A DNA stretch of 52,433 nucleotides from Patescibacteria group bacterium. GTDB lineage: Bacteria; Patescibacteriota; Minisyncoccia; Phycocordibacterales; CAIRYW01. The stretch lies in contig JAZKAJ010000016.1 in assembly GCA_040389185.1 (NCBI GenBank), positions 1 to 52,433 of the forward strand. The letters are read 5' to 3'. The first letter of the stretch is position 1; every line of letters starts with the position of its first letter. Under the pieces are notes generated by a model that did no database searches, had not been told where the DNA came from, and saw only the letters and a program-made list of their open reading frames with translations. Below, piece by piece: positions 17,887-52,433 of the stretch. Made by a program: the position numbers and the translations under genes.

Positions 17887-17976
17887 TGGCGGAGAGAGCG
17901 AGATTCGAACTCGCGAGACCGGTTAGGGTCCGGCGGTTTAGTAAACCGCTGATTTCAGCCACTCATCCATCTCTCC
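17887..17976 (-). tRNA. tRNA-Ser(ACU)
   Basis: Acceptor GGAGAGA/TCTCTCC, G73, encoded CCA, long variable arm; anticodon arm GCGGT-TT-ACT-AA-ACCGC. Confidence 0.88.
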
Positions 17977-32675: not shown

Positions 32676-33095
32676 AACATAAAAACTCCCTTAGTTGGGA
32701 GTTTTTATGTTTGGTGCGGGGCGCAGGTATATTTCTTGTAGCAACAAGAAATACCGAGCCGGGGTCGAGGAATTTTACAAGCGACGGCGAGTAAAATATC
32801 CGTGACCACAAAGTGCGAGCTGGGCCGCGACGGCGCGAGAAGGGGTGAGCTCGGGATCGGGACCCGAGCGCAAGACCTTTTGAGATAAAATTGGTTCGAC
32901 ATTATTTCCTTATGAGTTTACGAATTAGGAAATAAGAAGTACTCTTGTGGTGTAAGAAAATTTTACCCAAAAGGTGTACTGCTCCTGTAAGGAGGCGACA
33001 TTTTTGCGACGGCAAAAATTTATTTGTGACCACGAATTTAAAAAATACCTGCATATTATACCCGCACGAGCAGACTTAGTAACTTCTGACCACAG
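32676..33095 (+). repeat. tRNA-Ile trailer (terminator, antisense 3' end, stacked palindromic modules)
   Basis: CGCACCAAACATAAAAACTCCC / GGGAGTTTTTATGTTTGGTGCG stem; modules shared with the 9911, 25324, 37791 and 50998 elements. Confidence 0.75.
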
Positions 33096-37398: not shown

Positions 37399-37790
37399 GG
37401 GGATGACAGGCATAGACATGTAGATCCTTCATTAATGTGCGCAATCGAGTATCCTAAAACCTCGTAAAACTTATAGGAAACTCAAGTGCAAACGCACGAA
37501 AAGTTGTTTCTCCATATTTTGGAGCAAACGATTTTGCTTTCGCAACAGCTCGAGCCTAGCTCGCTGAAGCTTTAAGCCATCTGACTTCTTTGCTCTCTCT
37601 GGAAGAAGCTCAGGTGTAATACTCAGAGGATAGGATAGGGGCATTCCCGTCCCCTATCCGAAACTTGGGATAGTTGTATATGTGTTCTGCTTTTCTAAAA
37701 GCATATACAGCGAAACCAAAAGAGAAGATACATTGCGTAGACTCATTTCTGAAATTTATATGCACGGGGGTTCGATTCCGCCCATCTCCA
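37399..37790 (+). ncRNA. ssrA: tmRNA; predicted tag ANARKVVSPYFGANDFAFATARA* (37488-37559)
   Basis: GGGGATG/CATCTCC acceptor with G3-U70, A73, T-loop GTTCGATTC, internal GCA-initiated tag frame. Confidence 0.92.
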
Positions 37791-37992
37791 CAATCACAAA
37801 AATCCGCTTCACTTTTTTTTAGTGAAGCGATTTTTGTTTGTGGAGATGGAGCAATGTGTCAGTACACATTGCGTGAGAAATCGAAAGACGAAGCATGTCG
37901 TTTTGCGACAGCGAGTCGGGGTCGAGAGTACTTAGTCCGCGCAGTGTGTACTCACACGAGCAGACTTAGTAACTCGTGACCAATTCCGCCCC
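37791..37992 (+). repeat. tmRNA trailer element
   Basis: Hairpin, antisense TGTGGAGATGG, module CACGAGCAGACTTAGTAACT identical to 33065-33084, ends ATTCCGCCC (sense T-arm copy). Confidence 0.75.
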
Positions 37993-46580: not shown

Positions 46581-48164
46581 ATGAGCAAGATTATAAAAAC
46601 AAAAAGAAATTTAGGATTTACTTTGATTGAGCTTATGGTTGTTGTTGCAATAGTTGCACTGCTTGCAAGTATTGTTATGGTGTCTCTCAGCACTGTTCGT
46701 GATAGAGCAAAGGATGCAAAGACACAGACTGAATTTCATTCGATTCAACTAGCACTCGAAAGTTATAATTCAAATCATGGAGGATATCCAAATCCAAACA
46801 GCGACTCTACGCCAACGCCATACTGTATCGGAGCTACAGACTGCTTATTTGCAGGACTTCCTATTACTACACAATTCCCTGATGTAGACGATACTGTCTC
46901 TAAAAATCGATCAAATCTTGCATCTGCAGTGCAACTTTTTCCTTCATATACCAATAGCATTTCTTACTCCGATTCCGGAGGAAGAGAAAATAAAGGCTAT
47001 ATATATATTTCATGCGGTAACGGAGAATCAATATGCCCCGATGATACTGCCGTAATTGCCTACCCTACCACATCCGCAGTCAAATTTGTGAATGTGGGCA
47101 CATTTGATGTAGCCGTCTGCGGACTCGCACAATGCCAAGATAATTATGGACATAATTGTGGCAATGGTTCTGAAGACTGTTCTAATTTCTCAAATGATTC
47201 AGAATCTTGTGCCTATGATCCAAACGGAACTAGAACTGAAGTGGGTGATAAATGTATCTGTGATGGTACAAATAATTGTGCTTCGTATTGCAGTACTGAC
47301 AACACTTCATGCAACTATGACGGAAACGGAACAAATCCAACATGTGATTATAGTTGCCAGAACACAACATGTAATGATTCCAATGCATGCAATAATGGAT
47401 CAAGTGGTGCATGTGATTATAATTGTAATTGCAGTACTGATACTACAGCATGTAACTATAATTCATCAGGTACAGGGACTTGTGATTATAGTTGCCAAAC
47501 TATAACCTGTAACGATATCAATGCATGCAATAACGGATCGAGTGGTGCCTGCGATTATAGCTGTAAATGTAACTCTGACGGAAATGCCTGCAACTACAGT
47601 CAATACGGTACTGGTGGTTGTGAATATACAAGTTGTCACTCATATTCTTGCCAAGGAACACCTAATTGCGGTGGAGATTTATCAACCTGCGGAAATGTGG
47701 CTGGGTGTTACTGGGGTGGCGGATCATCAGATTCTTGTTCAGGCACACCTAATTGTAACGGGGATTCTTCTACTTGTGGAAATGTAAGCGGATGTAGTTG
47801 GGGTGGCGGAACTGCAGGATATTGTTCTGGTGTGCCCAATATCTCATGTACTGGTGATGAAAATACATGCAATGATGTTTCTGGTTGTAATTGGGACGGA
47901 TACTCTTGTAACTTAACATTGTCATGTGATGGTGATAGCTCTAGTTGTGGAATGACCTCCGGATGCAGTTGGCAAAGTGGTTCAAGTGACTATTGTTCAG
48001 GTAATCCTTACGGCAGTTGTAATGGAGATTCTTCTTCATGTGGAAATCAGAGTGGATGCAGTTGGGGAGGAGGAAGTCCTGATTACTGCACAGGATCACC
48101 TTCTGACTCTTGTAATGGTGATGCTTCTAATTGTAGTAATAGAAGTGGGTGTAGTTGGCAATAG
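46581..48164 (+). CDS. Type IV pilin-like protein with long Cys-rich repeat C-terminus
   Basis: Class III signal G|FTLIELMVVVAIVALLASIV; ~350 aa of Cys/Gly/Ser/Asn repeats. Confidence 0.88.
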   Translation: MSKIIKTKRNLGFTLIELMVVVAIVALLASIVMVSLSTVRDRAKDAKTQTEFHSIQLALESYNSNHGGYPNPNSDSTPTPYCIGATDCLFAGLPITTQFPDVDDTVSKNRSNLASAVQLFPSYTNSISYSDSGGRENKGYIYISCGNGESICPDDTAVIAYPTTSAVKFVNVGTFDVAVCGLAQCQDNYGHNCGNGSEDCSNFSNDSESCAYDPNGTRTEVGDKCICDGTNNCASYCSTDNTSCNYDGNGTNPTCDYSCQNTTCNDSNACNNGSSGACDYNCNCSTDTTACNYNSSGTGTCDYSCQTITCNDINACNNGSSGACDYSCKCNSDGNACNYSQYGTGGCEYTSCHSYSCQGTPNCGGDLSTCGNVAGCYWGGGSSDSCSGTPNCNGDSSTCGNVSGCSWGGGTAGYCSGVPNISCTGDENTCNDVSGCNWDGYSCNLTLSCDGDSSSCGMTSGCSWQSGSSDYCSGNPYGSCNGDSSSCGNQSGCSWGGGSPDYCTGSPSDSCNGDASNCSNRSGCSWQ

Positions 48165-50283: not shown

Positions 50284-50321
50284 TCATTTCCATTAGTACT
50301 AAGTATAACATCAAGAAAGAT

Positions 50322-50356
50322 AAACAAAAAACATCCCTTGCGAGATGTTTTTGTTT
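50322..50356 (-). terminator. Terminator of the tRNA cluster
   Basis: AAAAACATC / GATGTTTTT stem with T tail. Confidence 0.65.
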
Positions 50357-50419
50357 TGAAATTTTGGATGTGGACACGAACGAATTCGTGTCGCCATAAA
50401 TCCAAACACAACTTGTGTT

Positions 50420-50495
50420 TGGTACCCGGGGTAGGATTCGAACCTACGACATACTGCTTACGAGTCAGCCGCTCTACCAACTGAGCTACCCAGGC
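50420..50495 (-). tRNA. tRNA-Thr(CGU) with A31-G39 mismatch
   Basis: GCCTGGG/CCGGGT acceptor region, GCTGA-CT-CGT-AA-GCAGT anticodon arm, encoded CCA. Confidence 0.85.
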
Positions 50496-50514
50496 AAAAT
50501 GAACATTCTGAAAG

Positions 50515-50587
50515 TGCTCTCCAAGGGATTCGAACCCCTAACCACTCCCTTGCAGGCGAGTTGTGTTACCGTTACAACCAGAAGAGC
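50515..50587 (-). tRNA. Aberrant tRNA-like gene (GCA/Cys-like anticodon, A73)
   Basis: Good acceptor (GCTCTTC/GGAGAGC) and T arm; irregular D and anticodon stems. Confidence 0.5.
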
Positions 50588-50607
50588 TTTTCAGAAAATT
50601 TCTAACG

Positions 50608-50811
50608 TGGACTCGAGAGGATTCGAACCTCCGACCTTTGACCTAAAACCGCCAGCCTTCGCGCAAGTTTGCACCTCACTGCGCCGTGAAGCAAACAGGA
50701 GAACTTGTGTCCCCGAAGGACATTATGAAGGGTGCCTCCCTCACCTACCGACTAACGATCCTATTGTCTTTTTGAGACAATCAACGCTCTAACACACTGA
50801 GCTACGAGCCC
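50608..50811 (-). tRNA. tRNA (probably Lys, UUU) with 130-nt insertion at 50649-50778
   Basis: GGGCTCG/CGAGTCC acceptor, A73, GCTC/GAGC D stem, TTGAT/GTCAA anticodon stem, intact T arm; removing the insert gives loop TT-TTT-AG. Confidence 0.75.
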
Positions 50812-50868
50812 ATTTAGAAAATGGAGAACTTTCTCCACATCCAAAATTTCAAATGACTTTATAACGGC

Positions 50869-50896
50869 AGTATACTCTTTTGGATTTGGAATGCAA
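50869..50896 (-). promoter_or_regulatory. Sigma70-type promoter for the tRNA cluster
   Basis: TTGCAT-N16-TATACT on minus strand. Confidence 0.6.
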
Positions 50897-50997
50897 GAGT
50901 ATAAAATTCAAAATATTAAGAATATGATTACCTACTTTTTCCTTACAGGAACAGTACACCTTTTCGATTTTTATTTCGCATAGCTCATAAAAATCTG

Positions 50998-51141
50998 AAA
51001 AGGTCTTGCACTCGGGGCCCCTGCCCCGAGCTCACCTCCATAGAGAGGTCTCTATGTTCGGGGAAAGTAGGTATTATCAGCACAATTACAGATAAAGAAA
51101 AAAGCCGCCAAAAGGCGACTTTTTTCTTTATTAAAAACTTT
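50998..51141 (-). repeat. 5S rRNA trailer (terminator, antisense 5S 3' copy, shared palindrome)
   Basis: 51050-51085 is an inverted copy of the 5S 3' end; 50998-51036 matches the reverse complement of 32844-32880. Confidence 0.75.
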
Positions 51142-51252
51142 GTGCTGGCGATTACCTACTTTCCCCTCCATAGAGTATCATCGGTACTACGAGGCTTAAC
51201 TTCTGAGTTCGGAATGAGATCAGGTGTGGCCCTCGCGTCAAATCACCAACAC
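51142..51252 (-). rRNA. rrf: 5S rRNA (short, ~111 nt)
   Basis: CCACACCTGATCTCATTCCGAACTCAGAAGTTAAGC, GATGATACT, GAAAGTAGG motifs; ends approximate. Confidence 0.93.
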
Positions 51253-51389
51253 AAAATTTTCAATTTTGTTTGTTAACTTCATTTATTCAAAAGCAAGAGA
51301 TCTTTCAATCTCACGAAGCAGAAACAATTTAAACATAAAATTGTATCTCTTTTAGATAAAAGCTATAAAACTTTTATCTGATTTCCACA

Positions 51390-52433
51390 TTTCCTAATAG
51401 GAATCGAACATTAGTACACCTCGACTTAAACGATTACTCGCCTTACATCTAGTGCCTATCAACGTGATCATCTCTCACGAGTCTCAAACGATTCCTAATC
51501 TTAAGGTTGGCTTCGCTCTTAGATGCTTTCAGAGCTTATCCAATCCCGACATAGCTACGGAGCGGTGCCACTGGCGTGACAGCTCCCAGACCAGAGGTCA
51601 GTTCATCCCGGTCCTCTCGTACTAGGGACAAATCCTTTCAAGAATCAACGCCTGCAGTAGATAGGAGACCAACCTGTCTCACGCTTATGTTCACAAATTT
51701 TACTTTGTTACGACTCAAATTACTTTGAGGTTCGGACTATATCTTCATCTTTCCTAACGGAATCAGATGGCTTACTTGTAGTCTCTACGAGCAGAATTAA
51801 ATCAAAGATTTTAAATCAAGAATCAAGAATTTTTGATTTATGATTTTTACTTTTTGATTCATCTTTCTCTCGGTATTGTCCTCAACATCACTTGTAGGAT
51901 TTCACCGATATTAGTAAGCGAGTTTATATATGTTTCCATATACAACCGCCGTGATTCACATACATAATAAATATGTATCTTTGGTTCCAACAAATTAATC
52001 TATACTCTAGAATTAATTTTGTTTTGTATCTCTATAATTTTCTTTTTCAATATAACAGTCTAAGTTCACTTGTGTGTACTTATATTTTTGTCTCGTGGGA
52101 TTCAGACTGTAAATTAGTCAAAAGTTTCAAATCTTAAAGTCAAAAGAAAAATGCATTTGCATCTAACTTTTAGACTTTCGACTTTCTGACTTTTAACTTC
52201 TCTACGGTCTGAACCCAGCTCGCGTATCTTTTTAATTGGCGAACAGCCAAACCCTTGGGACCTTCTCCAGCCCCAGGATAAGATGAGCCGACATCGAGGT
52301 GCCGAACTCCGCCGTCGATATGGACTCTTAGGCGGAACTAGCCTGTTATCCCCAGAGTAGCTTTTGTCCGATAATCTCCCACCGCATCTAATGCGAATGG
52401 TCGGTTCACTATGTTCTGCTTTCGCATCTGCTC
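51390..52433 (-). rRNA. rrl: 23S rRNA, 3' part (partial, runs off the window; intron-containing)
   Basis: Peptidyl-transferase centre sequences (GGGATAACAGGCT, CACCTCGATGTCGGCTC, GAGCTGGGTTCAGACCGT|CGTGAGACAG) and sarcin-ricin loop AGTACGAGAGGACC. Confidence 0.98.
51684..52203 (-). mobile_element. Group I intron in 23S rRNA after E. coli-equivalent U2593 (520 nt)
   Basis: 5' exon ends in U, intron ends in G; P7 elements GTAGAGACTAC and AAGATATAGTCC; IGS GCGGTT pairs with exon GACCGU, adjacent TCACG pairs with 3' exon CGTGA. Confidence 0.9.

Follow-up and report, generated by a model that had tools for sequence, protein, structure and literature searches.

To our knowledge, the introns published so far in bacterial tRNA genes are group I ribozymes. 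Twenty-one classes of these introns, all of the group I type, are described in the available sections of 10.1101/2020.01.27.920355. In Lak megaphages, tRNA genes contain introns qualified as 'enigmatic', which were tested against Rfam and are highly conserved between phage genomes, according to the accessible part of PMC6784885. The protein-spliced introns of archaea and eukaryotes are non-ribozyme inserts of the tRNA anticodon loop. Stable bacterial RNAs can also be interrupted by the rRNA intervening sequences, which are sporadic and unconserved stem-loop inserts of 23S or 16S rRNA, cut by RNase III without religation. In tmRNA, the acceptor stem is of the alanine type, the T arm is intact and a large structured region takes the place of the anticodon loop. 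Our literature search returned no report of inserts other than group I in tRNA genes of bacterial chromosomes, and no relevant passage occurs in the accessible part of PMC9297842.

The window analyzed here is the complete contig C16 (52,433 nt) of a 0.997-Mb patescibacterial assembly of 29 contigs (38.6% G+C, 95.3% complete); its relatives have small genomes, in agreement with this placement. When introns were allowed, ARAGORN called a tRNA-Lys(ttt), c[50607,50811], whose anticodon loop contains a 130-nt insert; at default settings the gene was not called. The gene occupies positions 50608-50811 of the minus strand (Table 1). All its stems are fully paired (acceptor 7/7 with one G.U, D 4/4, anticodon 5/5 with one U.G, T 5/5), the T loop reads UUCGAAU and an A occupies position 73. 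The D loop, AGUGUGUUA, is devoid of the usual GG (G18G19). The acceptor, D and T arms, which the first-pass annotation had described as intact, are indeed so with regard to pairing, but that description had passed over both the D loop without GG and a G3:U70 pair in the acceptor stem. A further structural claim, that removal of the insert yields a UUU anticodon in a tRNA with A73, was reproduced by ARAGORN and by an enumeration of the junctions, a 7-nt loop with U33, UUU and A37 being regained on exact removal. No inner tRNA within the insert appeared in the ARAGORN output for the gene.

In our own stringent scan of the whole genome, four of the 27 cloverleaf candidates exceeded 95 nt: the insert-bearing gene, a tRNA-Asn gene with a group I intron and two artefacts of duplicated tRNA 5' halves. 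Furthermore, two samples of one study yielded Logan contigs that carry the insert-bearing DNA with 0 differences, covering 50380-51222 in X1, the possible source sample, and 50402-50968 in X2; contigs of X3 and X7 cover the 5S and tRNA-Thr parts only. The contigs of all four samples were of DNA type, and a search of sequencing runs gave no RNA run containing the locus. Since the sequence is identical in the contigs of two samples and no joint skipping the insert was present in the Logan contigs, the insert is not an assembly artefact. The tRNA-shaped gene with its anticodon-loop insert is thus confirmed as a genuine feature of this chromosome.

Table 1. Features of the insert-bearing locus and its surroundings (positions in the window).
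Feature	Position	Strand	Remarks
23S rRNA, 3' part	51391 to window end (52433)	-	526-nt insertion, group I core 51713-51969
5S rRNA	51143-51250	-	
Terminator-like hairpin directly after 5S	51092-51131	both directions	18-bp GC hairpin, A/T-flanked; between rRNA genes and tRNA block
Copy of repeat family	about 50940-51036		between 5S and tRNA block
Bracketing helix, 5' arm	50834..50853	-	perfect inverted repeat
tRNA-like gene, 5' part	50779..50811	-	acceptor 5' strand GGGCUCG, U8, D arm, anticodon stem 5' strand, U32; ARAGORN and sequence
Insert in anticodon loop	50649..50778	-	130 nt; first base G, last base G, preceded by U
tRNA-like gene, 3' part	50608..50648	-	UUUUAG of loop, anticodon stem 3' strand, variable loop AGGUC, T arm, acceptor 3' strand CGAGUCC, A73
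Aberrant tRNA-like (Cys-like) gene	50514..50587	-	GCA anticodon, 6-nt (or 8-nt) anticodon loop, anticodon-stem G.G mismatch, A73; Rfam tRNA 35.5 bits
tRNA-Thr(CGU), last of block	50420..50495	-	normal-looking; 66.1 bits
Bracketing helix, 3' arm	50355..50374	-	perfect inverted repeat
Terminator-like hairpin downstream of block	50352-50327	-	

The identity of the gene was then compared with that of the other tRNAs of the genome. An uninterrupted and canonical tRNA-Lys(UUU) is encoded at 22823-22895 of contig C11 (71.8 bits), so that the check for a second tRNA-Lys(UUU) advised by the first-pass annotation ended with an intact gene. The G3:U70 pair is the major alanine determinant of tRNA; among the 33 other tRNAs, tRNA-Ala(UGC) alone has this pair, and it alone shares the combination of G3:U70 with A73. 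The 22-mer that spans the T arm and acceptor of the gene was present in 60 metagenome contigs, whose tRNAs were all Val or Ala according to ARAGORN. The closest match to the exons is a tRNA-Val, 84% identical, and a tRNA-Ala with the same acceptor stem is carried by one viral contig. Because a tRNA-Lys(UUU) already exists and G3:U70 is present, a spliced product of this gene would be redundant and would combine an alanine acceptor with a lysine anticodon. After removal of the insert, the anticodon loop and A73 would be those of a decoding tRNA-Lys(UUU), whereas a determinant of another synthetase is present and G18G19 is missing.

The insert-bearing gene is the first of a three-tRNA block, followed by a Cys-like gene and tRNA-Thr(CGU), and the block is bracketed by a perfect 20-nt inverted repeat that forms a 20-bp helix. 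The helix is kept in three congeners with compensatory changes in each of them: U-A to C-G at position 9 (G006), G-C to A-U at position 12 (G005) and A-U to G-C at position 20 (G002). In appearance, it resembles the processing stems found on either side of rRNAs. The block lies between 23S and 5S in G006 and G002 and after 5S in G005 and in the present genome, and its content differs in every species. G006 has a low-similarity 'Val(GAC)' and Thr(CGU); G002 a single tRNA-like gene (L046, 2038-2112) with a 6-nt anticodon loop, UUUUAA, as drawn by ARAGORN; and G005 a 'Val(GAC)', an Asp-like gene with a 6-nt loop (L042, 1229-1301) and Asn(GUU). The 'tRNA-Val(GAC)' genes found at the same block position in G005 and G006 are 60% and 48% identical to the exons of the insert-bearing gene, respectively, and are not its orthologues. 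In the closest relative, G007, neither the block nor the helix arms were detected. The cysteine enzyme expects U73, which is the base of the canonical tRNA-Cys of the genome, unlike the A73 of the Cys-like gene. Intact acceptor/T-arm halves combined with irregular anticodon regions, as observed in these blocks, fit elements that are processed and non-decoding. The conserved 20-bp helix around a variable tRNA and tRNA-like block at the rRNA operon of this genus is a result that can be reused independently of the insert.

A terminator-like hairpin lies directly after 5S and no promoter-like site was found on the minus strand between 5S and the block, so that transcription of the block is not assured. 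The same spacer harbors a copy of a tRNA-associated repeat family with the core CCTTACAGGA..CAGTACACCTTTTGG, which is found on the opposite strand after 5S and after many tRNA genes, and whose gene-adjacent part copies the 3' end of the gene in question. BLAST gave 11 further matches in the genome; copies lie, among other places, at 32844-32993 of the window, 53757-53826 of C11 and 25812-25906 of C7. No link between the insert and this family was seen.

Homologues of the insert were sought in several collections. BLAST of the insert against its own genome gave no second copy, and neither of the two group I introns encoded there was similar to it. With the whole gene as query, only short T-arm or D-arm matches were obtained in 60 relatives, 7 of them of the same genus. 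Against 400 genomes of the class (E<=0.05), the 9 matches to the insert, 18-27 nt long, remained below the approximately 20 expected at this threshold. A covariance model of the insert (R1) had a match in 0 of 149 relatives, BLAST against a phage collection gave matches to the T arm only, and an exact 28-mer was absent from the metagenome contigs. A 5' 19-mer had one match among the genome contigs, within a coding region and attributed to chance, and a 17-mer had two viral matches, both in unrelated GC-rich DNA. The insert is an orphan, unconserved in the genomes searched. The Lak megaphage inserts are likewise located in tRNA genes and were likewise tested against Rfam, but they are reported to be conserved between genomes, unlike this chromosomal orphan, which no RNA family explains; this comparison is made by description, not by sequence.

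One local similarity was found in G007, a 24-nt match with 19/24 identical positions, equalled by 2 of 300 shuffles and, in a gapped test, by 5 of 200. It surrounds an ATTGTC...GACAATAGG hairpin and is collinear with the flanking anchors, but it was too weak to build on and the link was dropped. The G007 spacer that corresponds to the tRNA block contains, at L041 1251-1300, a GC-rich palindromic repeat of about 30 nt, which has 12 matches in G002 and 9 in G011 and was not found in the present genome. This repeat is nested in the ATTGTC...GACAATAGG hairpin, which itself weakly resembles the 5' end of the insert.

The G+C content of the insert is 53.8% versus 38.6% for the genome, a value reached by only 0.9% of the 130-nt windows of the genome; the spacers that flank it have values of 25-27%, and the two real group I introns values of 32-37%. 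Of all the observations, this composition speaks most for a structured RNA or for a foreign origin. The predicted fold consists of a 5' hairpin and a multi-branch domain closed by an 8-bp stem, with pair probabilities in the thermodynamic ensemble of 0.99 for the closing stem and 0.77-0.90 for three inner hairpins; one hairpin of the insert has a UUCG-type loop. With z = -1.61 and 11 of 200 shuffles equally good, the folding energy of the insert is not significantly better than chance, while the whole gene reached z = -2.58 with 2 of 200. Among the five helices that the first-pass annotation had drawn, the same ensemble retained the 5' hairpin (0.97), CGUUAGUC/GGCUGGCG (0.99) and UGUCC/GGACA (0.86), but not CCUUC/GAAGG (0.00) or GUUUGC/GCAAAC (0.03); GAAGG and GGCUGGCG share two bases. 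On the minus strand, the insert also contains a 15-codon reading frame (50676-50723, ATG at 50723) with a GGAGG 11 nt upstream, which probably occurs by chance.

The presence of a known ribozyme in the insert was examined with Rfam. All 4227 families were run by cmscan with the most permissive filters on 221 nt (50600-50820) at E<=10, and a 2.1-kb segment (50300-52433) was searched as well; no group I or group II intron and no ribozyme was found on the insert in either segment at this threshold. The 221-nt search returned only a partial tRNA, YrlA (12.9 bits) and PhotoRC-I (8.6 bits), all far below the cut-offs, and group II intron, hammerhead, twister, pistol, hatchet and HDV-like models gave no cmscan match on the insert at E<=10. 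In the same genome, the group I model RF00028 detected both positive controls, with 69.5 bits for the intron of tRNA-Asn and 38 bits for the core in the 23S insertion (E 1.3e-7, below the Rfam cut-off of 50). The earlier statement that the insert is deprived of a group I core is therefore upheld, Rfam being silent on it at E<=10 while both introns of the genome are recognized. The locus shares with the group I tRNA introns of the IC3 type the site in the anticodon loop and a hairpin across the 5' junction; a U before the 5' junction and a 3' G, as in these introns, result from two of the eight possible junction settings. It departs from them by the lack of a detectable core, by its size (130 nt versus 271 nt in tRNA-Asn), by being GC-rich where they are AT-rich and by its lack of conservation.

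As a whole, the evidence makes a redundant orphan gene of mixed identity, located in a fast-changing tRNA block, more likely than a new intron. Our preferred explanation, held with moderate confidence, is that the locus is a tRNA-derived and non-decoding element, a lineage-specific redundant copy from which the insert is not removed. A gene body of Val/Ala type with an alanine-type acceptor and a UUU triplet would have been interrupted in its anticodon loop by 130 nt of orphan GC-rich sequence, which would stay in the RNA. RNase P and the 3' end enzymes chiefly recognise the acceptor/T-arm half. As this half is mainly what the processing enzymes need, any transcript of the block could still be trimmed by them to a tRNA-shaped RNA of about 204 nt; the genome encodes an RNase P RNA (50 bits, full length). 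The element would be tolerated, or at most serve as a signal for processing, and drift would go on in its anticodon region. A parallel may be drawn with the rRNA intervening sequences, as the insert is sporadic, species-specific and closed by a stem, interrupts the gene of a stable RNA adjacent to an rRNA operon and belongs to a genome that encodes RNase III; the host is however a tRNA, in which a cut of the anticodon loop without religation leaves no decoding molecule. On this explanation, the case mainly illustrates how ultra-small genomes of Patescibacteria accumulate aberrant tRNA-like genes.

Several observations do not sit easily with a relic. Four perfect stems and a canonical T loop suggest that the disruption is very recent or that selection continues. 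The insert is G+C-rich, unlike the AT-rich genuine introns, and has predicted helices that are well defined (0.77-0.99) and a UUCG-type loop; its junctions, as modelled, appear to fit the U/G rule of group I introns, with a P1-like pairing that can be drawn. Finally, the sequence is identical in two samples.

Among the alternatives, an unspliced and functional RNA built on the tRNA scaffold, which the first-pass annotation had named as its other option, survives best, though it is unlikely. The acceptor/T-arm half would serve for processing, CCA addition, stability and perhaps, as in tmRNA, alanylation through G3:U70, and the function would reside in the 130-nt domain that replaces the anticodon loop. 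The upper half of the cloverleaf, which is intact and has G3:U70 and A73, agrees with this proposal, as do the AlaRS encoded by the genome, the GC-rich insert with its well-defined predicted fold and UUCG-type hairpin in an AT-rich genome, and the position in a helix-bracketed block conserved in the genus. It would follow the tmRNA pattern through its alanine-type acceptor stem, its intact T arm and its large structured region in place of the anticodon loop. But the full D arm and anticodon stem are kept, unlike in tmRNA, no tag reading frame of the tmRNA kind is recognisable in the gene, the tmRNA models do not match it and ARAGORN calls no tmRNA there. The only tmRNA-type match nearby is tmRNA_permuted (14.2 bits, E=4), over 50529-50632, and a standard tmRNA is already encoded at 37399-37793 of the window. 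The D loop without GG, a fold no better than that of shuffles and the absence of a homologue in the genomes searched, including the 7 congeners, which leaves neither covariation nor conservation in support, also weigh against such an RNA. If true, a chromosomal tRNA scaffold with a foreign domain would be an addition to the few tRNA-like RNAs, of which tmRNA is one.

An insertion at the DNA level, caused by a small non-autonomous mobile element or a recombination scar, or the stump of a group I intron that has lost its core, could also have inactivated the tRNA. We regard this origin, which is compatible with the preferred explanation, as quite unlikely to be the right account. Its plausibility comes from the other rearrangements seen at tRNA genes of this genome. 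On contig C13 (6721-6808), a second copy of the 5' half of tRNA-Pro(UGG), which reaches as far as the anticodon and breaks off in the anticodon loop, precedes the intact gene by about 50 nt, and the 5' part of tRNA-Phe is duplicated on contig C1 with the break after the D arm. In addition, a structured, GC-rich module, about 70-110 nt long and strongly conserved in its core, lies beside tRNA genes at 12 places, namely C1 2338-2502 (L153), C19 59923-60067, C21 46419-46576 and 9 others; the copy on C1 is embedded in the duplicated tRNA-Phe fragment. A query made of the module and the tRNA-Phe 5' part matched 57 of 101 genomes (this one included), some of them through the tRNA part only, and the module itself has no Rfam match. 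A profile built from 14 copies (nhmmer --max) found no similarity to the insert over 50300-51100 at E<=10, while it recovered the 12 other places at E<=0.01. The multi-copy GC-rich hairpin repeat in the orthologous spacer of G007 would speak for an insertion as well. Nevertheless, the insert occurs only once in its genome, neither terminal inverted repeats nor a target duplication could be seen, it carries no inner tRNA, and it is foreign to the module family and dissimilar to both group I introns.

The tRNA complement of the genome shows other singularities. The tRNA-Asn(GUU) gene (C5, 55318-55661, minus strand) is interrupted between positions 35 and 36 by its 271-nt group I intron, and no uninterrupted tRNA-Asn was found in the assembly. 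ARAGORN and Rfam together gave 33 standard tRNAs. Two tRNA-Ile(UAU) genes and a tRNA-Ser with the anticodon ACU, at 17887-17976 of the window, are present; the two programs found none for Asp, Met, fMet and Ile(GAU) in an assembly that is 95% complete, so that some may be unassembled.

The junctions of the insert were examined for signs of splicing. Among eight settings enumerated, 4 give a UUU anticodon, and two of these (k=0 and k=1) also place a U before the insert and a G at its end. A 5-bp P1-like pairing can be drawn between the exon sequence UGAUU and positions 19-23 of the insert (GAUCG), with a G opposite U-1. With eight settings to choose from, chance alone would provide such a U/G pair about 40% of the time, according to 10.1101/2020.01.27.920355. 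A non-ribozyme insert in the anticodon loop also recalls the protein-spliced introns of archaea and eukaryotes, from which the locus differs by a position other than 37/38 and by the lack of a credible bulge-helix-bulge motif and of the corresponding enzymes. A lax script search for this motif gave 5 geometries versus about 2 by chance; the sole geometry with a 7-nt loop breaks the anticodon stem and puts a G at position 33. The RtcB ligase (PF01139) and the splicing endonuclease (PF01974) had 0 matches each in the genome, which at 95.3% completeness is no proof of absence.

A new kind of intron that would leave a decoding tRNA with the anticodon UUU, be it a minimal ribozyme able to splice itself or an intron excised by another factor, is very unlikely and finds no support, because, for all its perfectly kept stems, the loop restored by exact removal, the U and G found at two of the eight junction settings and the possible P1 with U.G, the gene is redundant with tRNA-Lys(UUU), mixes an alanine acceptor with a lysine anticodon, is unconserved in the genomes searched, has neither a catalytic core or ribozyme family nor a detected RtcB or endonuclease at its disposal, and folds like its shuffles. 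The first-pass annotation, which had proposed a minimal or trans-assisted intron of a new type, had itself named in advance, as one refutation, an uninterrupted tRNA-Lys(UUU) together with a locus that is both unexpressed and unconserved; of these three elements, the uninterrupted gene is present and the lack of conservation was observed in the genomes searched. If true, a 130-nt intron outside group I would represent a new mechanism of RNA processing. Considered jointly, the possibilities that the 204-nt RNA belongs to a working kind undescribed in bacterial chromosomes, either as an alanine-accepting scaffold or as a tRNA with a very small new intron, appear rather improbable.

Elsewhere in the window, a 527-aa reading frame (46581-48164, plus strand) has a long cysteine-rich repetitive region after its N terminus, which, judged by eye, resembles a prepilin-type signal.
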